Of a stretch of 64,000 bases of DNA, positions 4,005 to 32,100 are shown one piece after another. The stretch is taken from positions 7,812,001-7,876,000 of the forward strand of contig CM102285.1 of the NCBI GenBank assembly GCA_046563655.1, written 5' to 3'. Origin of the DNA: Yuukianura sp. NJ FZ-2021. Its lineage: Eukaryota. The position numbers and the translations under genes were made by a program. The notes beneath the pieces are model-generated. The model was not told the DNA's origin, did no database searches, and worked only from the letters and a program-made list of their open reading frames with translations. Positions within the stretch are counted from its first letter, which is position 1, and each line of letters starts with the position of its first letter.

Positions 4005-6907
4005 ATGGGAAAAACAAACGCGCCATTCGTCTCACCCTGCCCAAGTTCAACATCAACACAAGGGAGGAGGAAAAACAAATCTGAAATAGAAATGCTTGAT
4101 AACGAAAACAAAACAAAGGAATTCAATGTTGAACCGAACGTTGAAGGAAGTTGTATTAATTAATTTGTTTATTGTATAATTTGTTTAAGTTGTATAATTT
4201 GTTTGTCTTCCCAATTACCAGCTTCCTTTTAAAAGTACTGAAACCTACTGAGAATTTTGTCAAAAATTTTGAAGATATTATTTCTGATTACATTTGGGAA
4301 AGAAAAAGAAATTGGATTAAAAAACCTTTCATTTATTTACCGAAGTCTTTTGGTGGACTTGGGATAAAACACCCCAAACTACAGAACTATATATTTCAAA
4401 TTCGACACTTAATAGATGCAACTCAAATCACTGAAAATCATTATTATTTGAAAGAATCTAAGAATGATGCCTTTAAAATCTTGTTTGAAAACTCGTATCG
4501 AGAAGACTACTTCTCTGAACTTTGTACAGTGATTCAGAAAATCAAATTAAACTTCGAAGAACTACCAAAAAATTTTCTAAGTAAAATTTGTATACAAAAT
4601 AGATCTATTTTTACGAGACAATTTAAAATACTTGAATCCTTCGGAGTCAAGTCAATTGATGAGATTTCCACAATTAAGGAATTGACTATTCCTATTTTTC
4701 GCAAACGAACATTTGAATCCGAAATTAAAACATTTGAGGAAGACTTAAAGTCATTTAAAGAGAACTTATCAAAAAAATGTGAAAAGGTAAAGTTGAAAGC
4801 TGTGAACCCTATCTTTGAAGTCTATGTTTCGTTCAGTAACACAAACGAATATTTGACAACGTTCTTCTCACTATTCCAATACGAGAAATTTTCAATAACT
4901 GACAAACAAAAATTAAAATCTAAGAAGTGGGAAAGACTTAAAAATGAGTTACTTCCTGTCCATATCAAATCCCTAATTTGGAGATTTTGGCATAACGCCA
5001 TTATCTCTTTTGACATCGCCAAAAATATGGGTTTAATATCGGATGGTTGTTGCCCATACTGCCACCAATCCAAGACTACTTCTTCACACTTAGTCTTATG
5101 CAAGTCAACGAAACAATTGTGGGAATATGTTCATTTATTATTGCAAAAATCAAATTCAAAAGATCAGATATACGATAAGACTTTTGGTTGTAAGAATGAT
5201 TTCGCGAACTATCTTATTTTTTGTGCAATAAGTATTTTATACAATAGATTTATTTACAATATTAACTCTGGTAAAACAGATTTTGATATTTTAGGCAAAT
5301 ATAAGCAATTCTTATTCCAAGCAATTTATCTAAGTTTCCATAGTCATAGAAGTAAAAATGATTTAGCAGCATTTAGAAGCCTTTGGTCTGACGCAAAATT
5401 TATAGTAATTAATCAAAATACTGTTGAGATTAAGTTATAAATTTATTTAATTTTCTTTATTCTAGTAATCGAAATTATTTATCTTAAGTAAATCCAATCC
5501 CATTTTCAAAAGTTTGAATTGAATAAATTGATTTAGTCTTAAAAAAAAAAAATGTATTAATTAAACTAATTACGTTAATCGATTAATCTAGTAGTATAAA
5601 GTTTGTTTGCTGTTTCATGTTAAGTTCATTAAAAGATAAGTAATAGCCAAACTTAATCTAATTACAAAGATTACCCACTTACCGTTTTGTTCTTTATTCC
5701 GGAAACACAAGTTTGGTAAGTTATAAAATCAGATGTTCGTTAAATTCTTGAATTTCGTTTGATTTATACCGTACATAAGTTACATTGTTTATTTTTACGT
5801 TTGAAGGTGGTTAATTCAGAGTTATGGAGGGTCATTCCAGGTAATCACAAATCGAAACCTCCCTGTCTCCAACGTCCGCTCCAGGAGGAATTCCGTCCGC
5901 TCCAGGAGGAATTCCGTCCATTCCAGCAACTAGCCAAGATACAACTGCAGACGATCCTCAAATGAACATCGAGTTTGATGAGGCATTATATTTTGTCACT
6001 GAAGACGAATCCATTGTGCACTTCTCACCTCCCTCGATCAGGGCTTCCATTGGAAAGAAGCGACGTCAGACGGTAAGAACTCAATTGATAATCGTGTTCA
6101 GAATTTTGTCAAGAAAAATTACTATTCTTTTCAGGCCGACAGCATGTAACAGCAACCGTTGAAACTGCAGCGTAATGATGCTGATGGTGCACCAGATGTC
6201 CAAACTCAAATTATGTACCAGTCGAACAAAATCTTCAATCTGGAAATAACAGTTTACGAGCTTCAGAAGGAAAACCAAGAGCTCCATGTCAAGTTAACGG
6301 AACAATCCACAGCCGAGGAGAACTCTGCTTTGCAATTGCACCAAAGAAACGATCTCGAAGCTGCACGCGAAGCCCGACGAAATTCGCGTTACGATTTGGT
6401 CAAGGTGAAAAGAAAGGTTCGCAGCTTGGAGAATCTTTATGTGTCGGAGCAAATCAACTGTCAGAATTCGGCCAAAGACTGCCGAAACTTCAAGAAAGAA
6501 AATGAAATCCTGAAGTAAGATTCTTCGAAATTCATTAATTTTTCACAAAAGTAATTTTTTTTGCCCTTAGGTCAACTGTCCAGCGAGAGCATCTTTTGGA
6601 AGAGCAGTTGCTGCCATCGAAGACAGAAATTTCTGGTTTGAAACACATGTAAGCTAAAAAGTCCCTTGTCGTTTCAAAACTTTAATTTTCAAAAATTGTC
6701 CCTTTTTCATAACTTTTGTTTTAGGATTGAAAATTATGAGAAGATCAAAACGTTAGAAATGGAGGTGACGGGAGCTAAGGCATCTTTACATGCCTCGGCC
6801 TCTGGCAAAGCACAAGTACAAGTAGCTGGACTACAGCAACTAAAACAGGAAAACTCCAATTTGAAGCAGACGTTAGCTACTACTCTAGGATTTAATCTGC
6901 TGGAGTC
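4005..6907 (+). pseudogene. Decayed tandem paralog of the MAD1-like gene (N-terminal half only)
   Basis: 6515-6770 is homologous to 11-470, including intron positions. In-frame TAA at 5842 and 6147; a 186-bp exonic deletion; truncated at the MITE at 6908. Assigning exon 1 to 4005-4152 is tentative. Confidence 0.7.
4164..5552 (+). mobile_element. 5'-truncated non-LTR retrotransposon (L1/Tx1-like), 3' part of ORF2
   Basis: ORF 4172-5440 has YIW...LPKSFGGLG (post-RT) and a zf-RVT-like KSLIWRFWH...CPYC...SHLVLC...LW. AATAAA at 5522, poly(A) at 5541-5552, 12-bp TSD TGTATTAATTAA at 4152-4163 and 5553-5564. Confidence 0.93.
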
Positions 6908-7350
6908 TACTGTTCCTCCCAAGCTATAATGGGACTCTGGAATTGAGGAATATGGTGGTTTTCAAGTACACGAACAACCAAATCGACGATTCCTTAAATA
7001 AAACCATTTTTTTCATTCAGCATGATTCATACATATACTACATCAACATTTTGAACATTTTTCAAAATTGTGAACATTTTTCAAAATTTTGAACATTTTT
7101 CAAAATTTTGAACTTTTTCCAAAATTTTGAACATTTTTCAAAATTTTGAACTTTTTCCAAAATTTTGAACATTTTTCAAAATTTTGAATTTTTTCAAAAC
7201 TTTGAATATGTTGATGTAGTACATGTATGAATCTTGCTGAATGAAAAAAATGTGTTTTATTTAAGGAATCGTCGATTTGGTTTTTCGTGTACTCGAAAAC
7301 CACCATATTCCTCAACTCCAGAGTCCCATTATAGCTTGGGAGGAACAGTA
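6908..7350. mobile_element. Palindromic MITE with TA flanks (Tc1/mariner-like)
   Basis: About 140-bp near-perfect inverted arms TACTGTTCCTCCCAAGCTATAATGGGACTCTGG / CCAGAGTCCCATTATAGCTTGGGAGGAACAGTA. The centre is an array of about 21-bp TTTTGAACATTTTTCAAAA units. Confidence 0.88.
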
Positions 7351-7382
7351 TAGGAGTTGATTTTGTGAAAATGTGCAAAATT

Positions 7383-8436
7383 AATAAACCGGTTGTAAAC
7401 CGCGCATACTAATAATAGCTCAGAAATAAGGGGCTGCCCCAGGGGGAATGGGGGTGTTCCCCCCACTTCCCCCCCCCCAGGCGAAGTGGGGGTGTTTCGC
7501 CCACTTTCCCGCCCCCGCCCCAGGGGGAGTGGGGGTGTTCCGCCCACTTTTCCGCCCCACCCCAGGGGGAGTGGGGGTGTTCCCTCCAATTTCCCGCCGC
7601 CCAGGGGGAGTGGAGGTGTTCCCCGCACTTTTTTGCTCCGCAACCCAGGGAGCGCAAGGGTGTGTTCCCCCCAATTTCACGCCCCCTAGGGGGGTGGGGG
7701 TGTTCCCCGCACTTTTTCGATCCGCACCCCAGGGAGCGCGGGGGTATGTTTTCACTCCTCCGGGGGGAGTGGGGATGTGTTCCCCACTGACAGGTGACAC
7801 GTGACAGGTGACACGTGACTGGTGACACGTGGCAGGTGACACGTGACAGGTGAGAGGTGACAGGTGAGAGGTGACACGTGACACGTGGCAGGTGACACGT
7901 GGCAGGTTACACTTGAGACGTGAGAGGTGACACGCGGTCAGCGATAAGTGACAGGTGACACCCGGGAAGTGAAAGGTGACACCCGGCAAGGTGACAGGTG
8001 ACACCCAGCAAGTGACAGGTGACACCCAGCAAGTGACAGGTGACACCCAGCAAGTGACAGGTGACACCCAGCAAGTGACAGGTGACATGTGACACCCAGC
8101 AAGTGACAGGTGACATGTGACACCCAGCAAGTGACAGGTGACAGGTGATTATGTTGGTCAACTGGGTCAGAGGTGACAGGTGAAGTGACAGGAGTGACAT
8201 GTGAAGCGTGAGAGGTGAGTGTGTGGTTCAACTGTGTAATTGATTTTTTGCTAAGCAGGGAACCAAGTGCCATACCAATTGCCTTTCTAGTCTCACAAGC
8301 AGAGTTTTTTATACCTACACTTGCATTACAAATGATCTTTAAAATCGATTTTGACCGGGAAGCAGGTGACATAGGGTCACACATTACACACAAAAGTTGT
8401 TGCTCTCGATGAGATGAACAACTTTTGTTGAGGTTA
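7383..8436 (-). mobile_element. HINE/DINE-1-like non-autonomous Helentron, 3' half (segment B)
   Basis: On the minus strand it ends in subTIR GCTATTAT plus stem-loop CGGTTTACAACCG and TT. It has the 7-bp GTGACAG array and G/C-rich repeats, and is collinear with the complete copy at 21138-22225. Confidence 0.85.
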
Positions 8437-9045
8437 TTATAATAGCGAAGCTATTATGATAAAAGTGGTTTGTCTGTCCGTCCGTCCGTCCGTCCGTCTG
8501 TCTGTCTGGATTAATTATCTCAGAAACTACTGGTCCGATTTGATTCCGGTTTTCACCAGTGACCATGTCATGACCCAGGCTTAGTCACTATTGAATATGA
8601 CCCCCGGGTGTCAACTCCTTCCGGGTCAAAGGTCAAGGTCAACCGGTTTTATTCCCGGTAACATGGAAAATGACCTCTACAAAAGTTGTTCATCTCATTG
8701 AGACTAACAACTTTTGTGGGTAATGTGTGACCCTAGGTCACCTCCTTCCGGGTCAAAATCGATTTCAAAGGTCATTTGTAATGCAAGTGTGGGTACAAAA
8801 AACTCTGCTTGTGAGACTGGAAATGCAATTGGCATGGGAGTTGGTTCTCTGCTTAGCAAAAAATCTATTACGCAGTTCACATATACACTTTACACACGTG
8901 CACTGTGTCCACCGGGTGTCACCTGGTTAGGTTAGGTGCGGAGCAAAAAGCGGGTGAACACCACCACTCCCTCTGGAGGCGGGAAATTGGAGGAAACTCC
9001 CCCTGGGGAGAAGCGGGAATGTGGGGAGAAAACACCGCCTCTCCC
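8437..9045 (+). mobile_element. HINE, 5' part lacking the 3' terminator (segment A)
   Basis: Starts TTATAATAGCGAAGCTATTAT (subTIR plus hairpin), followed by a GTCY microsatellite. It runs directly into IR-like coding sequence at about 9046 with no 3' stem-loop. Confidence 0.85.
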
Positions 9046-11470
9046 CCAGGAGAGTCGCTCGAGTAAATTTTCCGGTAAGTTTTGAATTGCCAGAAATTTT
9101 TCCACTTTTTTCTGGACTTTGTATTTGTCTTTGAATGACATTTGGGGACCATACAAGATGAACCGAAACAGTCCGGAATGTATGAGAGACTCGAACTGCC
9201 TCTGGATCTGCCCTGAGCGGTCAAAGGTCATTGGCCTCATGATCCAAAACACATTGTGTGAAAAGTACTAAATACAAAAAAGTTTTTGCTAAGCCCATTT
9301 CATCGTATTGTGATGAAACGAAGTCAGCGACCTCCAAGGATCACATAATTTGAATAATCATTCTCAAAAATAGATTCTTTTGTCTTTTGTGCAAAAGTAG
9401 ACTTTTGCACACAAACATGTAAATAATTAGAACTAGTTCGTTCATTGACCTATTCTGTTAAACTTAGACTTTACTTGACAAATATGATAATTAGGAGTAA
9501 CTTGTAACTCCTGTGGTTTCCGGCTGGGGCCCTATAAAAGGACCCAGCCCTGCCTGTACAAACATTCATTACACTTCTTCCTTCTGCTCTGCTTGGAGCA
9601 GGAGACTTTACTACTCGCCAGGTTGACCTCTGCGAGGTCAAACTGGATTCATTTTCAAAGTCACTTTTGAATAAAAATTCTAATTCTTACCTTCCACCAA
9701 GGAAGGTCAACAAAACTTGTAGTGTGTTCTTTTTCTTTTAGGCCTAAAAGGCCTTTTTCACTACAGTATATGTAAATTTTGTTGTCACACTTGACAATTT
9801 CTCGCAGAAGTTCGTTCGGTTTCGTTCTATTTTTTACCAAAATAATTGTAATACTTTCTATCAACTTTGGAAATATTTCATTTAGAAGACTTAAATTATA
9901 TGGGTAGAATGCGCGGGCGTGACGAACGACTCCTTTGAAAAAACCAGTTCCTTGTACTAGCTTTTTAAACGACGAAGAATTATACGCCACTCGCTCAGTG
10001 TACGTCAACTGCTCAACTTCCCGCAAGTCGAGTGCTGGACCTCCCACCCTTTCATACGGAATTGCGACTTTAAATTTTCGCTCCAAAGCGTCATTAACTG
10101 ATTCCAGCTTAGTGCTTGGTAATGGCGCGGTTAAGTCTGCTCTTACCTCACCACGATACAAATTTGACAATAAAACTAAGAATATAGCCAGTGTAGCCAA
10201 GAAAAATTTGAGACAATAAATTTTGTTCAACGTAAAAGAAAGGTCAATGTTTTGTTCAAATAGCAATCGAATCACAAAAAAGACGTAGTTATCTGAAGAA
10301 CGTTTCTAAAGAACTAGCGCAAACACAAAATAAACAGTAGCTATAAGTAAGGCCAAAAGACAAATCCAGAGGTCAAAGTTAAACGGTTTTGTGAACGATA
10401 CTAAACTAATAAATTTTTCAGCACCAGCGCAAGTAATAAATTTAACCTCAATACTCTTATACTAGTACGTGTAAAGGTATGGTGGCCTGTGTTGTGTTGC
10501 CTTACTATACATAGTACTATAAATTAATGGGAACGTTGCAGGGTAAACTACCAAACGCATTTCATGTTCTTCAAGAAAAGACGCCTCCTTTGCGTATTCG
10601 CGCGCAAATTTTATGACGTTCAGACCCAAATTAGAATTTAATGATGTTGAAGCTGATTTGTTGAGATGCTGGGTTACGCTTTTTAAAATATTGAAGTAAA
10701 GGGGGTTAGGTACATGAGGACCTTCTACTTGCTCATTCCCTCCGGTTGAAACGAAGTAACCTCGCACTCCGAGTTTACGGAATGCCCATACCATGGGACA
10801 CGCGTGTAGTAGAATTTTTGTCAGTTCAGGATCGAGTAGTGACCGAAAAGGGATTTGCACAACATTTGTATCTATATTGCTAGTGTGTAGAGCATAGGTA
10901 TTGCACGGGGCTGGGGAAATTGTTGTCACGTCGATAATATTGTTCCAAATGCGGTACACAATTACAGGTACCAAAAGGTGCCTGCATTGTTCATCACAGT
11001 TGTGAAGGTACTGCTGGTCTTTTGCCGCAATTTCGTCAGAGTATAGCCATACAAAATAAGTGTTTCGGCCGAAACAGGTTGGTCTGGTTGTTGTGTCGTA
11101 AAAGTCGCACTTCACTAGCCAGTTGAATCGAGACGGTAGTAGACATAACTCAACAGTAGAGAGTTCGTGAACAAAATTTAAAACTATTGCGCATATGTAA
11201 TTTTTTACCAAGTTACTAATTTGTAAAGAGGTAAAGGTAGAGTAAATTTGGGTTTCATTTTGCGGTAGCTGAATCGGTAACTAGCTGAATCGGTTGATTT
11301 GAAAAGTATTTCAATTCAATGCTGTCTGTAGCCTGTGATACTACGAATACATGGCAGTAGTGGTATCCAAGGCTTTCAAATTTAGTTGTCTGTCCAAAAT
11401 GGTCGGAAATTGTGGAGATAATATTTGCAAAATTTATGAAAATTTTGAAAAGTTGGTAGACCGACGTCAT
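9046..11470 (-). pseudogene. Divergent ionotropic receptor (IR)-like pseudogene
   Basis: Intronless paralog of 12161-14262 with KPFNFDLW and LSNLYRGEVRADLTAP. Disrupted by a frameshift (about 11260), a stop at 10462 and another near 10307, a solo LTR, and loss of the last TM. Confidence 0.8.
9309..9765 (+). mobile_element. Solo LTR (457 bp), probably Ty3/Gypsy-type
   Basis: TGTGATGAAA...TTTCACTACA termini; 4-bp TSD GTAT (9305-9308, 9766-9769); TATAAAA at about 9533 and AATAAA at 9670. IR homology resumes on both sides. Confidence 0.88.
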
Positions 11471-12160
11471 TTTATTGGTTTTATAGACAATTCGTCCTAC
11501 CTCACTGTCACTACCACACAACGAAAAAATTCATCTGTAGCAACAGAAGAAACTACCTTTGGTTGAAATTTCGCATTTGAATTTGCAGTTAGTATCATGT
11601 AACATGTACTATGTACTAGAATTTCAAGGCATCATTATTTCTCAACTTTGGATTAGCGCCTAAGTTTGGCCTTCAACTTTTTCTGTTATTAAGTAGCGAA
11701 AGTAGTTACTTCTTAAACTATTGGTTTTAGTCATAACTGCATACAGACAAGTACCGCTAAAGTATACTATTATATCTTACATCGATGCAAATTGTTTTCA
11801 ATTCTATGTGTTTTAGTATAGCCAGTGGTTAGATGCAACTGAATGTTGCATTTTGTCAACTGTTGAGAACTCTGTAATTTCAAACCACGCATATTATTCA
11901 AACGAATAATTTGGTTTTCCATTTCTTTACTCTTTACTTTAGTATGGTAGCTTAAATGCTGCCTAACGTAAACTATTACCTCCTGTTCTATTTTAGGAAA
12001 AAAATGTAAATTCCGCTTTTACTTTATTAACCTCCAATGTCCAAATTCCGCACACTAAGCTAACAGCATTAATTTATATTGGTTTGGTTTAAATTGCTTA
12101 ACCTAACTTAACATATTTAACTTAATTCACTTGTTATTTAACCTATAGTAGAAATAACAG

Positions 12161-14262
12161 TTAATCCAACGCATAACTACACTTGAGGTACACAATTTCA
12201 GCAACAAATGCGATGAGGCAGATGAGCGTAAGTACAGCGTGTACAATAAAAACTCCAAGCAGTAGACCACTGCCCCACGAGAGTCGCTCAAGTAAATTTT
12301 CCGGGAAATTTTGAATTGTCAGAAATTTTTCAACTTTTTTCTTGACTTCGAATTTGTACGTTTTCGGACCATACAAGATGTACTGAAACAGTCCGCAATG
12401 TATGAGGGACTGAAACTGCTTGTGAATATGTCCACCACGGTCAAAGGTCATTGGCCCCATGATCCAATACGTATTGTAGGAAAAGTACTTTTCTTTGCCG
12501 TAGTACAATTTTTTAGACGCTTCGGAATCGAGTTGTACTAAATCTAAAAATGTTTGTCTTAACCCGAACGTATCGTCTATGTAAATTTTGTTTTCACACT
12601 TTAGTATTTCTCGCAGAAGTTTGTTTGCTTCCCGAAAAATTCCAGAAAAATTGGTGTAATGCTTTGTATCAACTTTGGAAACATTTCATTTATAACAGTC
12701 GAATTAGCTGGGTATAATGAGCCGCAGCCGGCGTGATGACAGACTCCTTGGATAAAAGGATTTCCATCCATTGCCTTCATAATGCATTTCCAATTGTGCT
12801 CCATTCGCTTAGTATAGTTCAACATCTCAAGTTCCTCCCAGCAGGATTTGTCTCCGTGCAAATAAGTTGAGTGCATAATTGGAATTTTAAATTTTGCCGC
12901 CAAAGCGTCACTGACTGATTCCAGCCTAGTAGTTGGTAGTGGCGCGGTTAAGTCAGCGGTTACCTCGGAACGATACAGATTTGACAAAGTAACCAAAATT
13001 AAAGCGAGTGTAGCCAAGAAAAATTTTAGACGATAGGTTTTTTTCAATTTACCAGGAAACGTAATGCTTTGTTCAAATAGCAATCGAATCACAAAAAAGA
13101 CGCAATTGTCGGTACAACTGTTGTACTGAACTACAACAAACACAAAATATACAGTAACTATGAGTGAGGTCAAAAGGCAAATCCAGGCGTCAAGGTTAAA
13201 CGGTTTTGCAAACCCTAATAGACTAATAAATGTTTCTACGCCGGCGCAAGTCATGAATTCAAAGTCGTGTGTGGTTTGGAGGTAAACCGATATGTATGGT
13301 AGCATCGTTTTTCTTTTTCTGCCATACATTTCAGCAGTCGGTACTGCGTCCTGGTAAATATAAATCAGTTTTTCGAAGAAGTCACTCATATTCGAATATT
13401 TCCGCTCAAATTTTATTACGTTCGGACCCAAATTTGATTTTGATGCAGCTGAAGCTGATTGGTTGAGATACCGGGTTACGCTTTTTAAAATAATTAGGGA
13501 AACGGGGTAATCAGGATCGTATATTTTCGCATTCCTGTCGATGAAAACATCATTAATTAAGAATTCAGATTCAAGCACGGCCCATCTCATGGGACACGCA
13601 TGAAGCAGGATTTTTGTCAGTTCAGTATCGAGTAGTGACCGAAACGGGACTACTGCAACATTTGCATATATACTGCGTGTTCGGAGAGCGTATGTGTTGC
13701 ATGGTATTGGGGAAACTGTTGTCACCTCGGTAATATTGTTTGAAATACGGTACAGAAATAGTGGTACCGAATGCTCACTCCATATTTCGTCACACTTCTC
13801 AAGGTACCGGTCATCTTTTCCCGCCACTTTGTGAGAGTGTAACCACACAAAGTATACGTTTCGGCCGTAACATGGTTGCAATGTTATTGCATCGTCGGTA
13901 TCGCACTCCACTAGCCAGTTGAATCGAGACGGTAGTAAACATAGTTCCACAGTAGTGAGTTCGTGAACCAAGTTTAGAATGAGTACGCATGCATGATTTT
14001 TTACCAATTTTCTAACTTGTAATGACGTAAATGTAGAGTTAATTTGGGTTTCATTTTGTGGTAGCACAATTAGTTGAATAGGTTGACTTGAAAAATAATT
14101 CAATTCAAAACTTGAGGCAGCCTGAGCGACCACCATTACATGGCAGTAGTCGTATCCGAGATTTTCAAATTTAGCTGCATGCTCGAAATTGGTGGACATT
14201 GTGGAGATAATAGTTGCAAAATTTATGAAAAGTTTGAAAAGTTGGTGCACTGACTTCATCAT
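12161..14262 (-). CDS. Divergent intronless IR-like chemoreceptor with one frameshift (about 12630-12650)
   Basis: M1 KPFNLDAWICLLTSL, pore-region VIRLLFEQS, M2 LSNLYRSEVTADLTAP, C-terminal TM LLGVFIVHAVLTLICLIAFVAEI. Two ORFs (12601-14274 and 12161-12508) join via a single frameshift near A-homopolymers. Confidence 0.78.
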
Positions 14263-14711
14263 GTGTGCTAACAAAGAACTGCCTTGGTTTCAATTTCTCA
14301 CTTGAATTTCTGGTTTTAATGGAACATTTAACTGTTCATGGGACTGTCTATTTTTGAATTCTGAGCTTAAAAGTTTCTGGCCTTCAACCTTTTCTTGTTA
14401 ATCAAGATTGTATTAGCGTGTTGAGATATCAAATGATAGCTCCGGAGTTGTGTCGAGATGGTAATCTTCCAGAACATGACAATTCTCGTGCCGATAGTAA
14501 GATATATTGCCAAATGAGTTGCTACAAAACGCACTTCACGAATTTCCCCGAAACGAATTAGTCAGTAAGGTACTTTACTTCGAAAGTAAACTATTCCGAC
14601 GCGAATTACCGGACGTCTGCTAAAATTAAATTAATTCGACAAATAGTTTTTATAAGCGATAACCACATATAAATCATCATTTTAACACAAAATTTAATCG
14701 GCCGGGTTGTA

Positions 14712-15372
14712 CCGTAAATTTCCTTACAGTACAACGTACTTAAATAGTACACCGGGTCCGGTACCCAAAAAATTAGTTATTCCACCGTCCCTAATAGTAC
14801 ACTGGGTCTCCAATACTCCATCGGCTGTTTGGTAGTTATACAAGAGGAGTATAACAACCGGAGAAGTTGGTTGAGCTAATAGTATAGCCAGTGTTGCTGG
14901 ATGGATAAAATATTACTTCCACTCTCCTCTAAGGTGGTGGGTATATCTGGATTTAATTGGTTTCTTTCGGACCAAACTCAATTTTGTCCGTCAAGAACGG
15001 GATTTTATCCGGATAGATCCATTTATTCATTACAGAATACACAAGGTATCTGCTATTATGCAGAACTAGTATACTTATATACGTACTGAACATGTTTAGT
15101 TGTGTTCAGTGCTTTTTCTTGGTAGGTTTTAAGAGTTTTAAAGCAATTCTACTCATTTCTACATTGGTTTAGAGGCTAGTTTGCTAGTTTTCAATCAAAA
15201 TTCGCATAGGTCTGTGTGATGTCAGTAACCAGTTTTGGTCCAACATATTTTTTTTTGTTAAAAAAAAAGTAGTGCACCGTTCCTAATAGTACACCGTGTC
15301 CCTAATAGTACAGTACCCTTGGAAGTCGAAAACAAAGTTAGCACACCTGGTGAATTATCTGGAAATTTACTG
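14712..15372. mobile_element. Tc1/mariner (pogo-like) MITE
   Basis: TA|CCGTAAATTTCC ... GGAAATTTACTG|TA; repeated CTAATAGTACAC subterminal motifs at both ends. Confidence 0.75.
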
Positions 15373-15558
15373 TATTCTTGATAAGAATTGCTGGGACATT
15401 TTCAGATCTGGAAATTTTTCAGTTACAATATATGTAAATTTTTGTAGGTGAAAGATGCGGATACGACGCATCACCCTTTTGTAGTTTTAAATAGAATTTC
15501 AGAATTGAAATGAAAAAAAAGAAACAGAAATTTCGATTACTAAGAAATTTCGAGTTTA

Positions 15559-16180
15559 CTAAAAGTCCAGAAATGTTTTTGCTAAGCCACTGGCATTATC
15601 TATGTAAATTTTGTCGTCACACTTCACAATTTCTCGCAGAAGTTCTGTTATTTTGCTTCTATTTTTGACAGTAATTCGTGAAATACTTTCCATCAATTTT
15701 TGAAATATTTCATTTATAACAGTCAAATTATATGGGACAGACACACGGGCATAACGAAAGACTCCTTTGATAAAAGCATTTTCTTGCAATATATGCTGAA
15801 CGCACAACCAATTGTACGCCACTCGCTCAGTATAGTTCAACTGCACAAATTTCCGCCAATCACATGCCTCTTCATCTGATGTTTGATACGGAATTGCCAC
15901 TATAAATTTTGCCGCATCATTGACTGATTCTAGCATAGTGCTTGGTAGTGGCGCTGTTGCGTCGGCTGTTACCTCAAAACGATAAAGATTTGAAATAATT
16001 ACCAAAACTAAAGCGAGTGCAGTCAAGAAAAATTTGAGACGATGAATTTTTTCAATTTACCAGAAAACTGAACGTTTTGTTCAAATAGCAATGGACTAAC
16101 AACAAAGATGTAGTTGTCCGTACAACATTTGTATCGAACTACTGCAAACACAAAATAAAACAACTATAAGTGAGGTCAAC
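15559..16180 (-). pseudogene. IR-like gene fragment (M1-M2-S2 region)
   Basis: ISNLYRFEVTADATAPLPS...ELLREIVKCDDKIYID, homologous to the two neighbouring IR copies; both ends missing. Confidence 0.78.
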
Positions 16181-16189
16181 TTAGTAGTA

Positions 16190-16402
16190 TAGCCGGAAAC
16201 CCGTGATGTTTACACATCATGACATTAACTTAAAGCACTAGGTCATCGTAGTGTCAAACGAAAGAGCTAGGAGATTTTTGACATGTAGCTAGAGGATTTT
16301 TAACATTTGGTCAAAAATCTCCTAGCTCTTTCGTTTGACACTACGATGACCTAGTGCTTTAAGGTAATGTCTTGATGTGTAAACATCACGGGTTTTCGGC
16401 TA
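16190..16402. mobile_element. Small hairpin MITE
   Basis: About 90-bp near-perfect inverted arms (TAGCCGGAAACCCGTGATGTTTACACATCA / TGATGTGTAAACATCACGGGTTTTCGGCTA), short loop, TA at both ends. Confidence 0.82.
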
Positions 16403-16781
16403 GTTGAACAGAAAATTGCGAAGGCGAAGGGGGGGGGGGTATGGTAGGGTTAGAGGATAGTATGCATATATTATAGTATGATGTTTATGAGATTTACTTA
16501 ACTTTCACCTTTTGAATCTTTGATAAATTTTAGTGTTTTTATACCATGTGTACACCGGATGGTCTTCGATCCAACCTAGGCCAAACTACTTTTTTTCGCG
16601 TTTTGAAACGAAACTAGTGTCAAAATTTTTCTTTAATTATAAGAAAATTTTTTGCGACTGCGACTAGTCCTATAATTGATTTTGAGAAATGGTTGAAGGC
16701 CTCTCCTCGTCAGTACGATTATGTTATACACTAGTACATGCAAAATCGATAACATTGAACGGTATTGATGCTTTTTTAGCC

Positions 16782-17608
16782 TCAATATGCCGAGGGGCAC
16801 GGTCTGTAGACATAGCCAAGGACACCATCGTTTGTCCATCCCATGTTGTTCATAGCCTTAATGTTGTACTCCAAAGCTAAGCGCCAGACGTGCCCTCTAA
16901 AGAACGAGTAGAGTCCAAAAGTCCCTTCCCTTGGTTCTGAAAAGATGTAAGCTGGTACGTAGGCAGCATTAGTAAAAGGGTTCCAGCCGGGAGTCAGAGG
17001 TTTTGTTGAGAAGCGATTGTTGTATCCATTGTAATATCTGGAGAGCACAACCGTCCCGTTAATTGGCAACTGCGCAACTCGAGCCAGCTCTCCCAAATTC
17101 CAGTGCGAATAGCCTTCTCTTGCTGCATTACAAAGAAAAAAGTTGCGTTAAAGAAAAGCAAACCAACCTAAACCTAGCGTTAACATGTAACGCGGTAATA
17201 ACATTTGACGCGTAAATATAGTAAATATAGATTTAACAAGTAAATATAGCATGTTTAATATGAAGTTACACCTTTAGAAAAATATATTTAATATGTAACA
17301 ATTTCGTAGTGTAACTCTATTTAGCACTGACGCAGGGTTATAGTAACGGATTCATACTTACTAAGGTCGGTCCAAACCGTTGAATAAAGAAAATCCGCTC
17401 CGGAAGGCCGAAGGCGGTAGAACTCTCGGAACGAAACGAAGCGCGAATCCGAGCACACGTCGAAACTGAAATCCGGACATATCTTTGCCTGATCGCATTT
17501 GTCTTTGTAGTAAGCGCAGGTAGCTACTGTCTGCTCTGGTAATGCCATAGTAACATTCTCTCCAGCATAACCGTTAACAATGGACAGGACTAATACAAAC
17601 GTTGACAT
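16782..17608 (-). CDS. Small probably secreted DUF5648-like repeat protein
   Basis: Exons 17608-17362 and 17122-16782 join in frame (TDL-TREGY). Three VxLxRYY/LYSFF...GY-type repeats ending DGVLGYVY; hydrophobic N-terminus. Confidence 0.65.
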
Positions 17609-18094
17609 TTTACGAACAATGTAGACGGAAACGTTAAAATATTGACGATATTTGACGCATTTAGAGCCTTTTATATTCAAATTCCTTTTTAAACCATTTC
17701 TGCTACATTTTTTAACCACAAGTAATGCCTGTGAGGGAACTTTGGCTATTTCATGTCCGGACTCGATGTCAATCCAAGTTTCGCCACAACAAATTAGATG
17801 CAACAAATTTTAAACAAGTGGGTCGTGGTATAATTTAAAATGGGTCAAACGACCGCACAAATTATTGGTCGAATTTCAGTTTCGATCAAAACATTTTAAA
17901 TCACCACTTAACCTTATTATTCTAACGTATAAAATTGATGTCGCGTGTAAATCATATTTTTACAACTATTTGCTTATTTGAAATGATTTTAATTTGAACC
18001 ATTGTGAAAACTGTTCAATTGGTGGGGTTTGAAGCTTAAAAAATATTTGAACCATATTTAAGATTTTGTTTCGAAATGTAAATTATCATAACCC

Positions 18095-19648
18095 TTATAT
18101 CAGTGTTGAAGGACATAGTCTAAAAACATAGCCCAAGAGGTCATCCTTGACCAAGCCCATGTTTTTCATTGCCTTGATGTTGTAGTCCAAAGCCAGTCGA
18201 TGGGAATAATCTTCTCTGTGGAAACGGTGGAGTCCGAAAGTTCCTTCTTTAGGTTCTAAAAAGATGTACGTTTGAACATAGTTTGAATATTTGTTAGGTA
18301 TCCATTCAGCAGTTAGATTTTTTATTGAAAACTGATTCCCCTTGCCATTTAGGCCATTGTAGTACCTCACAAGAGCAACTGTCCCATCCACTGCTGATTT
18401 TGCAACTCGCGCCAGTTCTCCCAAATCCCGGTATCCATAATATACTAATGAAAAAAGAGTTTGGATTTTAGTAATTTAGTTTTTGGTGGCCGAGCTTTTG
18501 TGCACATTTACGCGTGACCGTCGATAACGGTCGACAAGTTACCGTGCATTAGTGACGGGTTACGCCAACGGATATAAACGGCGTAAAGGTAGAAACAAAG
18601 CAAAGCTACGCCAACTCCTATGAAAACTTTTTCGAATTGTTAGTCCATGGAGTTTTAGGGAAAAGCAGTTGAAAAAAATAGTATTTCATATTCCAGTGAT
18701 TTCATCTAGTCGTAAACAATAAGAAACTTACCATTTTCCTCCCAAACTGAAGAGTAGTGATAACCAGGGAGAGTTGTATACTCATACTCGCGGAGCGGAA
18801 CAAACCGCGAATCAGAGCAGACGTCATAAGTAAAGTTTAAATTGATCTTCGCCGTTGCGTTGTATTCTTTTAGCAGTAGCACTTCAGTTAAGTCCAACTT
18901 CTAAGAAAGAATCTCTACCGCCCTTGTCGTGTTTTGCTGAGATTCGGCCAAAACGTTTTCAATTTTCTGGTCAAGAATCGCAGACTGATTTTTTGAACTC
19001 TGTCGCATTTCAGCAACATTTTCTCTCAAAGTATCTTGAAGTTGGAGAGAAAAGTTGTGCATTTGTGCTGTTTGGCTAACAATTGCCCTAGAAATAGAAT
19101 ACTGCATTTCTTTGGTCTGTTTCAAAGCTTCTCCGAATTGTGCTAATTGTTCAGTAAGTTGTGCATTTTGTTTAACAATAGCTTCTTCCCGCTTAACATT
19201 AACAGCGTTAAGCCTAAAAAGTTCTTGGGTGTGAGTGATAAGTTGCTCAATTCGGTTTGTGAGTTCTGCGTTGCGCTGTTGCAGAGATGCGCTCTGATTG
19301 GCTGCGCGAACTGCAAGGTCTGCGTCTTCACTTGCGAGTTTTCCATCTTGTTCGAGCAGCTCTTGGTAGCGTTCAGTCAGCAGTTGCAGGGCGCTCTTTA
19401 GTTCGAGTAGTTGCTGCTCAAAGTCACTCATCTGGAAATGTACACAGTGACTCAACACCATTCGCAGTGTCAAAAAAAATGTTTTGCAAGAAGCATTTTT
19501 TCGGCAAAAACTGAAATTTTCTTACCCCTGTCACAACTCTCTCCAAGTATTTTCGGATCTCCACGTTCCGTTTTGCACGTCGTCCAAAATCTGGCTGCCA
19601 GGAAGCAAATTTTAAAAAAATCAACAAAGGAGCAAATAACAGTCTCAA
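18095..19648 (-). pseudogene. Coiled-coil plus DUF5648-like gene with one in-frame stop; start codon not found
   Basis: Exons about 19648-19526, 19431-18732 and 18444-18095. TAG at 18901-18903 separates the coiled coil from DVCSDSRFVPLREY...LLGYVF in the same frame. Paralog of 16782-17608. Confidence 0.65.
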
Positions 19649-20026
19649 CGAAGCAGTTTTACTGTTGCCATTTACGGAAAATTCAATTTTACCTTTGCAA
19701 CAGCACTACGGAGCAACAGAATGCAAAGGCAAAGAATAATTTGCGCAGAATCCATTGTCGCGACGTAATTTAAATTTATAGAAACTATGAAATTTGAAAA
19801 TATATTATGAAACGAAATTAAATTTGTTAATTTGAGTTAGGTATTTAGTCAACTCTGGTGTAAAACTTGGCTTATGTTGGTCATATATAAGCATCATAAA
19901 CTTCTCACAGAGCAAAATGAAGAATTTTAGTCAAATAAAATGCGGATAGACAATTTTAGTTTACTTTTGATAAAAGTTCGGAAATTGACTTGAATTAAAA
20001 AAAAATTAGGCTCCCGTCTCACATTA

Positions 20027-20918
20027 TTATAATAGCGAAGCTATTATTATAAAAGTAGATTGTCTGTCCGTCCGTCCGTCTGTCCCGGAAAACATTAGAA
20101 CGATTTTCTCCGGAACTGTTGGACCAATTTCAACCGGGTTTTCACCAGTGACCATGGCATGACCCGACCTATTCACTATTGAATATGACCCGCGTAGGTC
20201 AACTCCTTCCGGGTCAAAGGTCAAGGTCAACCGGTTTTATCCCCGATAACATGCAAAATGACCTCTACAAAAGTTGTTCATCTCATCAAAGGGAACAACT
20301 TTTGTGCGTAATGTGTGACCCTAGGTCACCTGCTTCCGGGTCAAAATTGATTTTAAATGTCATTTGTAATGCAAGTGTGGGTAAAAAAAACTGCTTGTGA
20401 GACTGGAAAGGCAATTGGCATGGGACTTGGTTCTCTGCTTAGCAAAAAATCTATTACGCAATTGATATAGTATGTATACACTTTACACACTCGTGCACTG
20501 TGTCCACCGGATGTCACCCATCACTTGCCGGGTGTCACCTGTCACCTCTCAGTTGCCGGGTGTCACCTGTCACCTGTTAATTGCCGGATGTCACCTGTCA
20601 CTTGCCGGGTGTCACCTGTCACGTGCCGCGTGTCACCCTCACGTGTCACTTGCCGGGTGTCACCTGCCACCCCTCAGCTGTCACGTCTCACCTGTCAAAA
20701 CCCCCTGGGGGGAGGCGGGAAAGTGGGGGGAAGACACCCCCACGCCTCCTGGGGTGCGGAGCAAAAAAGCAGGAAAACACACCCCCACTCCCCCGGCGGG
20801 GCGGAAAAGTTGGGGGAACACACCCCCGCTCACCTTTGGAGGGGGGTGGCTTCAGTGTGATTTACAAAACTTCCCTATTCTTCGCTATTATCATTATGGG
20901 CGGTTTACAACCGGTTTA
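20027..20918 (+). mobile_element. Complete HINE (segment C)
   Basis: 5' TTATAATAGCGAAGCTATTAT, GTCY microsatellite, TGTCACC array, 3' subTIR CTTCGCTATTAT and stem-loop CGGTTTACAACCG; no TSD, TT at both ends. Confidence 0.9.
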
Positions 20919-21137
20919 TTTTCCATGTTACCGGGGATAAAACCGGTTGACCTTGACCTTTGAACCCAAAAGGAATTGACACCCGGGGGTCATATTCAAT
21001 AGTGACCAAGGCCGGGTCATGACATGGTCACTGGTGAAAACCGGAATCAAATCGGACCAGTAGTTTCCGAGCTACATGTTGCTTCCGGACGGACGGACAG
21101 ACAAACCACTTTTATCATAATAGCTTCGCTATTATAA
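20919..21137 (-). mobile_element. HINE 5' half (segment D)
   Basis: Minus-strand 5' end with hairpin and GTCY. It stops at GTAACATGGAAAA, exactly where segment B begins in the family consensus. Confidence 0.85.
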
Positions 21138-22225
21138 TAAACCGGTTGTAAACCGCCCATAATGATAATAGCGAAGAATAGGGAAGTTTTGTAAATCACA
21201 CTGAAGCCCCCCCCAAGGTGAGCGGGGGTGTGTTCCCCCAACTTTCCCGCCCCGCCGGGGGAGTGGGGGTGTGTTTTCCCGCTTTTTTGCTCCGCACCCC
21301 AGGAGGCGTGGGGTTGTGTTCCCCCCACTTTCCCGCCCCTCCCCGGGGCAGTGGGGGTGTGTTCCCCCCACTTTCTCGCCCCCCCCCAGGGGGTATTGAC
21401 AGGTGAGACGTGACAGCTGAGGCGTGACAGGTGACAGGTGAGACGTGACAGGTGAGACGTGACAGCTGAGGCGTGACAGGTGACAGGTGAGACGTGACAG
21501 GTGAGACGTGACAGCTGAGGCGTGACAGGTGACAGGTGAGACGTGACAGGTGAGACGTGACAGCTGAGGCGTGACAGGTGACAGCTGAGGCGTGACAGGT
21601 GACAGGTGAGACGTGACAGCTGAGGCGTAACAGGTGACAGGTGAGACGTGACAGCTGAGGCGTGACAGGTGACACCCGGCAAGTGACAGGTGACAGGTGA
21701 CACTCGGTATTTGACAGGTGACACCCGGCAATTAACAGGTGACAGGTGACACCCAGTGGACACAGTGCACGAGTGTGTAGAGTGTATATGTCAACTGCGT
21801 AATAGATTTTTTGCTAAGCAGGGAACCAAGTCCCATGCCAATTGCCTTTCCAGTCTCACAAGCAGAGTTTTTACCCACACTTGCCTTACAAATCACCTTT
21901 GAAATCCATTTTGACCCGGAAGCAGGTGACCTAGGGTCACATATTATACACAAAAGTTGTTTGTCTTGATGATATAAACAACTTTTGTAGAGGTCATTTT
22001 CTGGGTTACCAGGGATGAAACCGGTTGACCTTGACCTTTGACCCGGAAGGAGTTGCCCCACGGGGGTCATATTCAATAGTGAATAGGTCCGGGTCATGAC
22101 ATGGTCAATGGTGAAAACCCGGTTGAAATTGGTCCAATGGTTCCGGAGAAAATCGTTCTAATGTTTTCCGGGACAGACAGACGGACAGACAAACCACTTT
22201 TATAATAATAGCTTCGCTATTATAA
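21138..22225 (-). mobile_element. Complete HINE (segment E), head-to-tail with D
   Basis: Both termini are intact. Its 3' end CCGGTTTA abuts the TTATAATAGCGAAG start of D. The 7-bp array is expanded at 21400-21750. Confidence 0.9.
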
Positions 22226-23389
22226 ACGCTTATATATATTCTCTATATTGCTATATTCGCTATAAAGCAACTACGCAACGCTAAAATGAGTTGCCTGACC
22301 CTTTCGGTTAACCTCTCCGTACATAGGTTACTAAAGGAATTTTTTCACATAACATCACGTAAATTCGTGAGAATCCAGCTGTCTCATTTGCAATCAGCTG
22401 ATGAAGATCAGCTGATTACATGATTGCCATTGTGTCGAGGCCTTACATACTTCCCTCCCAGAAAAAGTGGCGGGAGAGAGGAGAAGTGTTGTGTAAACGG
22501 GGCGGTCGGAGACTCAATGGGTGCCGCCTTTTTCGACATATAGTCGTGCAGCTCAGTTCTAAACGATAATTGAGCGCGCCAAAAACGCGTTTTTAAATTT
22601 TCAAAAATTTTTGAAAACAATAGGCGTAATAATTAAAAATAACACATTTAATTTAATTTTTTACCCCCGTTTAGAACTCTTGGAATGAAGATGTCCTAGA
22701 ATTACGCATATTTGACCTTATTGTCACCCATTAATATTTGAAGCAATAGTCAATTTTCACGTAAAGTCGTCAAGTTATAGACGGACCAGTTAAACTACGC
22801 GAAAAAATGCTATACCTTTTTTGTTAGAATCCAAGCCAGCGGAGGCCTACGCGCTTTGGTAACTAGTTGAGATAAGAATGACATCGCTAGTATTGTAAAA
22901 ACACAGTCATTGTTGATATGTTTAAGCCCAAGCACAGCTATTCGGGTTACGTTTTGTGAGGAACATTTTTCTAGTCAAATGAAGAAACTACGTTGTCCGA
23001 TGCGTTAGCAAGCAGCGTCTTCTAATGCGGAAAGAGTGGCTGTAGTTTTCTGAGCGCCGTACCAATCATTCAGGAAGTGCCCTCAAAACCTTCTTCCATG
23101 GCCGCACTGAGGCCTCATTCAAAAGAAATGGAGAACGGGTTGATGTTTTTATTGTATTTGTACTTTGTTTCTTTTTTTACCTTTTACTTGGTTTTTTTGC
23201 TTGGTCACTTTAGAACATACGTCATCCCTCAGCTAAGTAGTTGCAGCAAAAAAAAAACTTTTTTTAAAGTAAGTTCAATAGATTTAAACGAAAATGAATC
23301 AAAATACAATTTAGAAAGTACCTAATTCAAAATCTGTAAGCAAAAAACCTTGTCGATGGCTGCCACCTCTTTTTCTGTAAATACTGGAA

Positions 23390-24134
23390 GACAATAATTA
23401 TTCGGATACCCTTTCCAGGATTCGAATAAAGAATATCTATTCGAACAGTAAAACATTAATATTCGAATTTCGAATAGTTTAAAGTGCAAATGCAAATGAA
23501 AGTATGCAGACATGTTGTAGATCCTTGCGATTTCAAAACTTTGTTACTACAACTGTCCTTTTTACATTTGGCAAGATGACCTTTGACTTCCCGAAGAAAG
23601 TAGTGCCAAATTGATGTAGTGTCAGAACTCTTACTTTGGACATCGGTAAACGGACTTAACTCGACAACCTTATTTGCATTATGTTGCTCATTAATCTGGG
23701 AAAGCATGCCATTGCTTCTAAAATTAATTGCTTCTAAACGAGAATTGCTTCTAAATTTTGTTTCTAATAACGTTAACGGATAGGTTGTTAGAAGTAATTT
23801 TTAGAAAATTTTCTATTTGAAGCAATTCGTATTAAACAATGGTATGGAGCCATTCAATGTCTCTTTATAATTACAATTGTTAATTAAGGGTCATCAAAAC
23901 CGTTTACCTAACGAAAAAGTCATCAAAACCGACCGCAATTTTTAAAACACAGTGAGAGAGATTGTAAACTGTGCGAGTACAATGCATATGTAGTGAATAT
24001 TTCAAACCACTCCTCCAGATCGATTTCCGCTGAATTATTCGAATACCTCCTCCTGGTATTCGAATTTCGAAGCTCCCAAAACAGAGCTTCGTATTCGAGT
24101 ATTCGAATATTCGTGTTCGAATAGTTATGCTCTA
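23390..24134 (-). mobile_element. hAT transposon remnant with BED zinc finger
   Basis: ORF 23456-23707 has SIWHYF...AKCKKDSC...GSTTCLH (BED). Minus-strand end TAGAGCATAACTATTCGAA with ATTCGAAT subterminal repeats. Confidence 0.7.
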
Positions 24135-29182: not shown

Positions 29183-32100
29183 ATGAGCCACGGTGATACT
29201 TTTAATTCAAGTAACTCATCTCAGGACCTTTTACAACAAAGACTGAACGAAACAATGACCATGACGACTTCACCGCTTGTTGGTCCACCACCAAGGTCTG
29301 CTCGCAAGATTCTTTTTGGCTACCCAGATCCTGACCTTCCTTGTGCCGTTCTGGCAAGTCTGACTCAACGCAACTGGGCAGGATTCTGCGACAAATGGAA
29401 CGTGGATCCAGTCAATGGTCGTCCAAGGAAGACAGATTCAAGTGCACAGGCAGAAGTCAAACCAGCCTACGACTGGTCTTTGGTCGCTACGAATGATCCA
29501 GAAATTATTGCTGCTGAATCCGAGTCTTCTGGATGCTCCGAGGAGAAGCAGTCCATGATTACGTCTGTCACTGTTCAAATGGACATTGCCATGGCAGCTG
29601 TCACCGCAGGATCCTCTTCCTCACAGTCATTGATGAAGTCAGCGGAAGCCAATCAGGTCAAGAGTTCACTTGCTATTGCTGGGCCTAGTGGATCTACGGA
29701 ACGTATACGCAATAAGAGCCCAATTTCACCACCATCAGCGGGTGCAAAACGCTTCTGCAGCGGCATCTCATCTCCTGGTGGCCGACAACGTGCAATCACA
29801 GGTACTGATTTTTCTAATACTTTCTGTCCCATCCCAGTACAAATAAAGATTTTCTTTACTCTTGACGAAGGACAAGGTCACTTTCTCACTTTCACCGCCT
29901 TCTATAGCCTAAATAGTGGTTATGTTTAACATTATGTAATCTTGATTCGTTGATTCATTATAGATTTTAATCTATTCTTTCCTGTGACATTTTTGTATGC
30001 TTTTAGCATTCCGAAACTGAAACAAAATTGTGAAAGTCATTTTAAGAGATTTCATGGTGGGGCGGGGTGGGTGGATAAGGGACATGTGCGTATCCTATTG
30101 TTTTTGTAGTTTAAATCTCTACCATAGGGGCTGGGGCGGTTAGGAATCTCGCGTAACAAAATTAACTTCTCGGATCCCTTGATGGAGTGGTATTTTTTCT
30201 CAAGGGAACCCAAATCCCTTTAAATCCTGATTTCAAGGGTATGTAAGTACCCTTTACACACACTCAGACGTTATGTAGACGCACAAAAAAGCAGACAAGA
30301 GCCAGACTTCAAAGTCATCTATGGTGGCCCCAGAGTGCCAATGCTGTTTTTCCCATTTTGTAATTCAAAAAGCATTTTCAAATGCATTTTCAATTGCATT
30401 TCATTTTAAAAAGCATTTTCAAAAGCATTTACAAAAGCATTTTCAATTACATTTCATTTTAAAAAGCATTTTCAAATGCATTTTCAATTGCATTTCATTT
30501 TAAAAAGCATTTTCAATTGCATTTCATTTTAAAAAGCATTTTCAATTGCATTTCATTTCAAAAAGCATTTTCAATTGCATTTCGTTTCAAAAAGCATTTT
30601 CAATTGCATTTCATTTCAAAAAGCATTTTCAATTGCATTTCAATTTCAATTTCAAAATGAAAATGCACTTGGCCCTTCTGGGCTCCTAATTCAAATTCAA
30701 TTTGAAAATGAAAATGCATTTGGCCCTTCTGGGCTCCTTATTCAAAAAGTGCGCCTCCTGCATACCATGTGACTTTTTTGTGTCTGAAAGTGGAAAAGTC
30801 TTGAGTTCCTATAGACACCACGAGTGCCAGTTCACAAATGGGCACATATGCCAAATCTCAAGTTATCGAATGTTTTGTTAATTTTAAGTTTGTATTCTAA
30901 TTATCTATTCATTTAAATATTAATTATTCATTTGAATATTAATATAATATACGGTGGTGATATACGTTCTACTACAATGTTTCGATTAAGTTGATCCTGT
31001 TATTTACACATGGTTACTGAAATGTCATAAATCTCTACATTGTAATAAAAATTCATAATTAAATTCATTGTAAACTCATTCCGAAGCGCAAATTCATTTG
31101 TTTTCAATTGGCCATTGACTGCGTTTAGAAAGTCCAACGGACGTAGCTTAGGACATTGGGCATATGAAAAGATAATAATTCTCAAAGTTAACGATTTCTC
31201 AAAAACGAAAGGTCAGAATTTGATGACGTGATGCAGGGGCGGTGTTGGCTTATTGTAGTACCTACACAATAAATTTCAGCTTTCCGACATCTCAACTCTA
31301 ATTTTCCAATAAAGTGAAATCCTTTTGTAGGATAACTTAGGTTATTTTGTTTTAGTTAACCCTAACCTTACTTGCCTGCCCTAACTAAACGAAAAGTCAG
31401 ATTTTCATGTAACTTTTGGGGTATAATTATTAAAGTGCTTAGAGTATCCCCTTTAATTTACAGCTTCGCCACAAGTCGGTTTCTTGGTGAAATGTTGGTG
31501 GAGATAGTGAGTCGACGATTTAGCCGAAGCCCGGGCACTAGCCTGGTTTGTTTGTGTGTTAAATTTTCAATATTGAATTTGATTGATAAAAAATTGAAGT
31601 AAACTTGCTTAGTAAAATGAACGCCGTATTTAATTACCTATCTACACCCACCGCTCCCCAAAGACCGCCTTGTGGCGAAGCTGTAAATTCAAGGGGACAG
31701 TCTAATCAGTTTTATCATTATACCCATGAAGTTTAATCAATTTCTGACTTGTCGTTTTTCAGAAATCGTTAACTTTGAGAATTATTTTCTTAACGAAGTC
31801 CATCGTCGACTCACTATCTCCACCAACATTTCACCAAGAAACCGACTTGTGGCGAAGCTGTAAATTAAAGGGGATACTCTAAGCACTTTAATAATTATAC
31901 CCCAAAAGTTACATGAAAATCTGACTTTTCGTTTAGTTAGGGCAGGCAAGTAAGGTTAGGGTTAACTAAAACAAAATAACCTAAGTTATCCTACAGGAGG
32001 ATTTCACTTTATTGGAAAATTAGAGTTGAGATGTCGGAAAGCTGAAATTTATTGTGTAGGTACTACAATAAGCAACAACCGCCCCTGCATCACGTCATCA

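Follow-up and report, generated by a model that had tools for sequence, protein, structure and literature searches.

The 64,000-nucleotide (nt) stretch of Yuukianura sp. NJ FZ-2021 DNA analysed here (the window; positions 7,812,001 to 7,876,000 of contig CM102285.1, assembly GCA_046563655.1) contains a block of 12,482 base pairs (bp), at 8438–20919, which carries a gene cluster of 11 kilobases (kb) between a truncated and a complete mobile element and is itself lodged inside a third member of the same family. The block opens at base 1 of an orphan head, that of element A, and closes with the final base of the tail of element C, both on the plus strand; a head and a tail that face the same way thus enclose it, and the element on the upstream side is tail-less, as in a composite unit. 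It interrupts the element that we call D.B exactly at a T|T step and without target-site duplication. Taken together, these features are consistent with the block being a composite, read-through Helentron unit that moved as one, a reading to which we give an even chance. Such a move from A to C had been proposed in a first-pass annotation of the same DNA; the anatomy on which the proposal was built (bounds, orientation and exact insertion) is borne out, whereas an origin of the block in place would fit the same junctions.

All HINE-like sequence in the window belongs to a single repeat family and is confined to 7382–22225, as judged from a blastn comparison of 7001–23000 with the whole window. 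A 20-nt head motif occurs four times in the 64 kb (8438 and 20028 on the plus strand, 21136 and 22224 on the minus strand) and a 20-nt tail motif three times (7384 and 21137, minus; 20919, plus), with none of either expected from shuffled sequences, and a T flanks each of the four heads and three tails. Since heads outnumber tails four to three, A is the sole head without a tail. From left to right, B (7384–8437, minus strand) supplies the 3′ part and the tail of the interrupted D.B; GTGACAG-type and GC-rich tandem repeats lie within it, the tail motif occupies 7384–7403 with its end at 7384, and past the split site B is colinear with the other three elements. Element A (8438–9050, plus strand) comprises a head, with the motif at 8438, and a 5′ part, with no tail motif downstream. 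Element C (20028–20919, plus strand) is complete, 892 nt from its head at 20028 to the end of its tail at 20919. The 217 nt of D (20920–21136, minus strand; head motif 21117–21136) form the head-bearing 5′ part of D.B, and E (21137–22224, minus strand) is complete, with both motifs and its own split site unbroken. The tail of E adjoins the head of D with no base between them, so that the family also inserts directly beside its own ends. The boundaries first given for B, for the block and for D were right to within 1–2 nt of those reported here.

The 5′ subterminal repeat, ATAATAGCGAAGCTATTAT, begins at nt 2 and is palindromic, with an 8-bp stem and a fold z-score of −5.6. Its 3′ partner, CTTCGCTATTAT in C and E and GAGCTATTAT in B, begins 40 nt from the terminus in C and E. 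A 3′ hairpin, CGGTT-TAC-AACCG (which includes AACCGGTT), ends 6 nt before the terminus in B, C and E, its fold energy being unremarkable (z −1.75 and −0.14). Judged by this structure, the family would fall among the HINEs, that is, the non-autonomous Helentrons. Rep or helicase domains were found in none of the 27 window open reading frames (ORFs) scanned, the ORFs inside the HINEs, which lie over tandem repeats, being outside that scan. An exact-pattern scan with the 20-nt head motif returned no locus in genome_contigs and one, L001, in metagenome_contigs; the latter was rejected as a chance match, having no blastn similarity to the window.

The insertion of the block is documented by D.B. 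In the orientation of the element, D terminates in ...AACATGGAAA and B opens with ATAACCTCAACAAAAG, and the unbroken site in A, C and E reads ATGGAAAATGACCTCTACAAAAG, slightly altered in C and E; the split site of the family is ATGGAAAA|TGACC, interrupted in D.B and unbroken in the other three. In a four-way alignment the joined D.B has the same length as A, C and E across the site, with two substitutions, no gap and no duplication. Because independent truncations would not complement each other to the base, D.B is one element opened once, and the junctions point to a single insertion, not to two independent truncations. Moreover, since the three unbroken copies serve as a built-in empty site, the insertion is definable to the base without a second genome. 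The earlier claims that B and D are halves of one minus-strand HINE, that the homologous site is unbroken in E (and, as it turns out, in A and C), that the block runs from the start of A to the end of C, and that the junctions carry T and no duplication are all upheld: the head motif stands at 8438 and the tail ends at 20919, the halves rejoin with no base lost or gained, B plus D align to the family without a gap, and there is no change of length against the three unbroken copies. Homologous recombination or inversion between HINEs in opposite orientations was also considered and rejected, since it would regenerate whole elements and not terminus-to-interior joints.

Parts of the cargo occur in four public sequencing runs (X1 to X4), three from one sample of organism A, which is probably the source of the window, and one (X3) from organism B; all four consist of short contigs, whose depth is not a measure of copy number. 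These data bear on the suggestion that the arrangement is an assembly artefact joining two nested-HINE loci or, in a variant, a translocation broken at Rep cleavage sites. The region is repeat-rich, the summed contig depth over the HINE bins is 100–400 times that of a flank contig, and no listed contig spans any junction or the entire region, all of which would suit a misjoin. Collapse of repeats, however, joins homologous positions and thereby regenerates whole elements, while the outer junctions here run from terminus to interior, with interior ends that complement each other base for base. In the three source-sample runs, contigs that match the window exactly are present across the cargo, an observation that also speaks against an artefact and that is not independent of the assembly. 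We therefore regard an artefact or translocation as improbable.

An internal hairpin of D.B with a 12-bp stem, at 8390–8428 (minus strand), lies 9 nt from the T|T entry point of the block. The homologous stretch in A (8660–8725) folds at −14 kcal/mol (z −5.3), and none of 200 shuffles was as good. In each public run, 13–14 contigs cease to resemble the window immediately short of 8667/8668, and 12 do so immediately past 8718; they look like diverged members of the family that keep only the hairpin. An insertion hotspot and independent modules were considered as possible alternatives; the diverging contigs give no evidence of a hotspot, their loose letters being unlike HINE heads or tails.

Comparison among the elements suggests that the two ends of the block come from different subfamilies. 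Over some 490 nt of the conserved 5′ part, A is 86% identical to C and E (blastn). D and A share 85.8% identity over 239 aligned positions, agreeing in 40 of the first 40 columns and in 100 of the 108 that lie between column 125 and the break; they also have in common a stretch of 35 nt in which C and E read differently. C and E, for their part, agree at 208 of 231 positions in the 5′ block and at 59 of the last 60 nt, and the last 60 nt of B match C at 40 and E at 39 positions. From these alignments, C belongs to the subfamily of E at both ends and the tail of B to another. As A sides with D and C with E, the block is best described as combining one element's head with a complete second element, not as a single element that received an insert. 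As a side observation, the 3′ parts of C and E (20703–20919 and 21137–21348) flank D as inverted repeats with 94% complementarity along 142 nt, and their 5′ parts are about 85% identical by blastn; either the tails are better conserved or C and E have undergone gene conversion.

The subfamily pattern is also what bears on a chimeric origin of the block. Here, a single HINE, X, having inserted in D.B, would have broken, and its right end would have invaded a native copy of C beside the cluster elsewhere; copying would have proceeded leftwards through the cluster until microhomology allowed rejoining to A, leaving C with the head of the native copy and the tail of X. One HINE insertion would thus account for both exact outer junctions, and the microhomology at 9038–9050 would be explained as well. 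Against this, the head of A groups with D, and C groups with E at both ends (208/231 and 59/60), while B, the only tail attached to a D-type head, is just 40/60 identical to the tail of C. X must accordingly have been a two-subfamily hybrid, or E must have converted the tail of C, with a single example of each type to judge by. We consider a chimera of this kind very doubtful.

At the left end of the cargo, A continues past its 5′ part into a short run of GC-rich repeats, and HINE similarity is lost at about 9050 with no tail motif, in agreement with the earlier claim that A has lost its 3′ stem-loop. From 9038 on, the sequence shows 81–88% identity to the final coding exon of the second of three iGluR-like copies in the cargo, with 9038 matching 12267. 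Because exon similarity starts at 9038 and HINE similarity reaches to about 9050, the junction falls within 9038–9050, an imperfect 13-nt overlap that resembles both the HINE GC-rich repeat and the iGluR-like exon. The last 34 or so codons of the first copy, including the final hydrophobic helix, are replaced by A: the product reads ...ENLLERLSWG and then HINE-derived residues, where copy 2 runs 34 residues further. A truncated element is therefore fused to a truncated exon.

If the block moved as a composite unit, A would have lain at a donor locus upstream of the iGluR-like/DUF5648-like cluster, with the second HINE, C, downstream in the same orientation. A would have lost its tail when a junction of the microhomology type joined it to the final exon of the first iGluR-like gene. 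An autonomous Helentron would then have provided the Rep/helicase that nicked at the intact head of A; as no terminator was met, synthesis would have continued for 11 kb and halted at the next tail in the same orientation, that of C. The single-stranded product would have integrated at the T|T beside the strong hairpin in D.B, itself arranged head-to-tail with E. We infer, in this scheme, the movement in one event, the direction of synthesis and the donor. That two HINEs of different subfamilies jointly relocated an intact 11-kb five-gene cluster as a composite rolling-circle transposon appears to us to be evenly balanced between right and wrong.

The main rival to a composite unit invokes side-by-side HINE insertions and an 11-kb filler templated by repair. 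C would have entered the T|T of D.B and A would have inserted beside the head of C, or the two in reverse order; the A|C joint, where Rep would naturally nick, would then have broken with loss of the 3′ part of A, and repair would have copied 11 kb from a gene cluster elsewhere, using microhomology at 9038–9050 and at the head of C. The result would still be a Helentron-associated gene capture, but the 12.5-kb block would never have transposed. The abutment of the E tail and the D head proves that side-by-side insertion occurs in the family, end joining or template switching typically leaves an imperfect overlap such as the 13 nt between A and the cargo, the last four bases of the cargo, TTAT, are also those of a HINE tail, and every visible junction is compatible with this course of events. 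It nevertheless demands an unusually long templated insertion, of 11 kb, that stops on the right precisely at base 1 of C; it requires two HINE insertions at one site in addition to complex repair; and it leaves the shared orientation of A and C without a reason. On balance we see construction in place as possible but rather unlikely.

Several observations weigh against the composite unit and have to be set beside the anatomy. The E|D joint shows that members of the family can insert side by side, so that an origin in place is possible. Pairing the tail of B with the head of D presupposes the point at issue, and, since B and D do not overlap, their membership of one subfamily is presumptive. 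The grouping of A with D is modest: in columns 41–125, A matches D.B at 59 of 85 positions and C at 59 of 85 as well, a tie due partly to a 16-column microsatellite gap. The family would count among the HINEs by its structure, its tie to an autonomous Helentron being presumptive. Among the listed short contigs, which are ill-suited to the purpose, there is no second A/cargo junction, no empty allele and no spanning read, and a B–D 'empty' joint would be uninformative in short contigs because an intact HINE elsewhere looks identical. In X1, contigs identical to the cargo have depths of 104–130, about the same as a flank contig (115.9), and hence do not point to a near-identical donor. All other cargo-like contigs listed (records 5, 8, 25, 26 and 28–30, spread over the cargo and from this same sample) are 90–95% identical to it, possibly paralogues or alleles; they indicate that a diverged second copy or allele exists.

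In organism B, a 1263-nt contig matches 19743–20028 with three differences, and, among the matches listed, no further piece of it lies beyond the first base of C. This contig fits an insertion of C at a T|T in cargo-type DNA, and it fits the composite unit and construction in place equally well. Stretches of the window without cover in organism B (the flanks, copy 1, copy 3 and the second DUF5648-like gene) were not used as evidence. Joints seen in the contigs such as 11319 to 14128 and 7403 to 21308 were rejected as graph or paralogue effects, their sides of 21–30 nt lying between paralogous repeats. Over 6000–24000, the identical or near-identical contigs of X3 have depths of 4–6 and those diverged by 1–9% depths of 124–132; two related genomes of widely unequal abundance are apparently present in this run.

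The cargo includes three tandem units of 2.8–3.2 kb on the minus strand. Copy 1 (9038–11530) is a pseudogene with two in-frame stops and a frame change near 11258–11280. Copy 2 (12164–14289) consists of ORFs of 562 and 174 codons separated by one frameshift in a T-run near 12640–12650, and copy 3 (15562–16157) is a fragment, recognized by tblastn and blastn, that matches only the region of residues 381–561 of copy 2. An open frame is kept in none of the three. A HMMER search with copy 2 gave 150 relatives at E ≤ 1e-3 (P0004–P0153), 26 of them at ≤ 1e-10. The receptor-like nature that the first-pass annotation had ascribed to these sequences ('IR-like') holds at the level of a family profile and not in Pfam, where Lig_chan (PF00060) falls below the cut-off on copy 2 (E = 1.1; 9.5 bits against 30.8) and where none of the 12 HMMER relatives tested has any family at E ≤ 0.001. 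A 30-member family profile matches the GluA2, GluN2B, GluD and GluK2 chains in PDB, with a best E of 3.5e-8, and its positions 343–442 fall on the iGluR transmembrane domain (M1–pore–M3). Atlas neighbours include Lig_chan and Lig_chan-Glu_bd clusters (0.90–0.91), with labels mostly from Arthropoda, and a word-indexed protein search returned nothing for the iGluR-like ORF. From these comparisons 'iGluR-like' is a fair label, and a chemoreceptor role may be presumed. The suggestion that the element offers a route for dispersing chemoreceptor families is weakened, because no iGluR-like copy is open here.

To the right of these copies lie two DUF5648-like genes, also on the minus strand: gene a (16785–17809; ORFs 17324–17809 and 16785–17147) and gene b (18098–19521; ORFs 18904–19521 and 18098–18475), paralogues with 57% identity over 112 amino acids. 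The DUF5648-like label is likewise an earlier one, and it stands on protein-language-model features, in which 29 of 30 Atlas matches belong to the DUF5648 set (top score 0.94), and fails in Pfam, where DUF5648 (PF18885) gives no match even at E ≤ 10 in the four DUF-like ORFs scanned. Gene b has a sub-threshold PhoQ_Sensor match in Pfam, and the word-indexed search found nothing for the DUF-like ORF with the 'longer' lengths. The nearest Atlas clusters of both genes are 71–100% bacterial; if the similarity is real, an animal genome could have acquired these genes from bacteria long ago. Among the 16 ORFs of at least 90 amino acids that lie in or touch the cargo, 10 were scanned, with none reaching the Pfam cut-off and none Rep- or helicase-like. 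The rest of the window contains no tblastn relative of any cargo gene. In X1, the summed depth of two cargo bins, 14414–15014 and 16217–16817, exceeds that of the bins next to them some 10- to 25-fold; these two are probably interspersed repeats inserted within the cluster.

The window as a whole is AT-rich eukaryotic DNA (GC 0.31–0.51 per 2 kb) in which host-gene exons are present, including tetraspanin and Vps26-like ones, and it contains other repeats. To the right of the HINE nest, 22227–22980 reaches a summed contig depth of 12290 (in X4) and shows a joint that goes back 717; the nest probably borders or sits in another repeat. A foldback or MITE-like structure occupies 6908–7350, with 106-nt arms that are 94% complementary around a 19-bp tandem array (7025–7233). 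Contigs from X1, X2 and X3 join 6907 to 7349, omitting 441 nt, and this joint may be an empty site or a polymorphism. The inverted-repeat structure at 30319–33077, with arms of 603 nt at 97% and 427 nt at 99% complementarity that are made of 12-, 17- and 29-bp tandem repeats, looks like a foldback-type element or a palindromic satellite. A 426-codon ORF at 4160–5437 has a zf-RVT domain just above the cut-off (E = 2.6e-6) and is probably the remnant of a retroelement.

Mobilization of adjacent genes by one-ended rolling-circle transposition past a missed terminator is known from the bacterial IS91/ISCR elements; their host context is prokaryotic and unrelated, and the comparison would be an analogy of mechanism only. 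Helitron-type elements insert at A|T targets and have ends of the form 5′-TC...CTRR-3′, and read-through experiments on Helitron gene capture have reportedly been carried out with Helraiser. The block differs from such captures in being of Helentron type (T|T target, subterminal inverted repeats), in carrying a whole multi-gene cluster in place of gene fragments and in being known from one copy only. According to those parts of the HINE study of Thomas, Vadnagara and Pritham (2014; PMC4067079) from which the comparisons in this and the following paragraph are drawn, HINEs are defined by subterminal inverted repeats of 12–15 bp, sometimes palindromic, placed 2–4 nt from the 5′ end and 38–60 bp from the 3′ end, by a short 3′ palindrome, by T-rich targets that are left unmodified, and by having no coding capacity. 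The elements of the window resemble the HINEs/DINE-1 described there in their palindromic 5′ repeat at nt 2 with a partner 40 nt from the 3′ end, their 3′ hairpin, their microsatellite or tandem repeats, their T-rich unmodified targets and their adjoining insertions, and the block is unlike them in that ends from two subfamilies enclose 11 kb of host genes.

In the same account, host sequence is captured when terminators are missed or when neighbouring Helitrons transpose as a composite, and the same end-bypass or composite route is suggested for HINE-associated duplications (PMC4067079). With the Helitron captures in maize and bats (PMC4067079), the block shares one head, the use of the next usable downstream tail, a lost upstream terminator and host DNA between the two. 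It is also comparable to the Culex Helentron that contains histone gene fragments and to the Drosophila DINE-1 duplications in having host coding sequence inside or between Helentron-type ends; those cases, as presented in PMC4067079, concern gene fragments or duplications merely flanked by DINE-1, whereas here the nested target proves, to the base, that an insertion took place. Cg_HINE of the Pacific oyster is likewise a non-autonomous Helentron with internal tandem repeats and, in the part of the report consulted (PMC7492417), its cargo is satellite-like arrays, in contrast to the genes found here.

Gene capture by Helitrons is well documented, while for Helentrons, so far as the cited portions of PMC4067079 go, gene fragments have been reported and composite transposition or end bypass has the rank of a hypothesis. 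Among the papers that library searches on Helentrons, HINEs and Helitrons brought up, none presents a multi-gene composite Helentron in its title or the opening of its abstract. No functional consequence is shown by the present locus, since its iGluR-like copies are already decaying. If the block did move as a composite unit, it would provide base-exact evidence that pairs of HINEs relocate whole gene clusters, a capacity so far only proposed. If, moreover, a donor exists, the locus would make a case for the seeding of tandem receptor-gene arrays at new loci.

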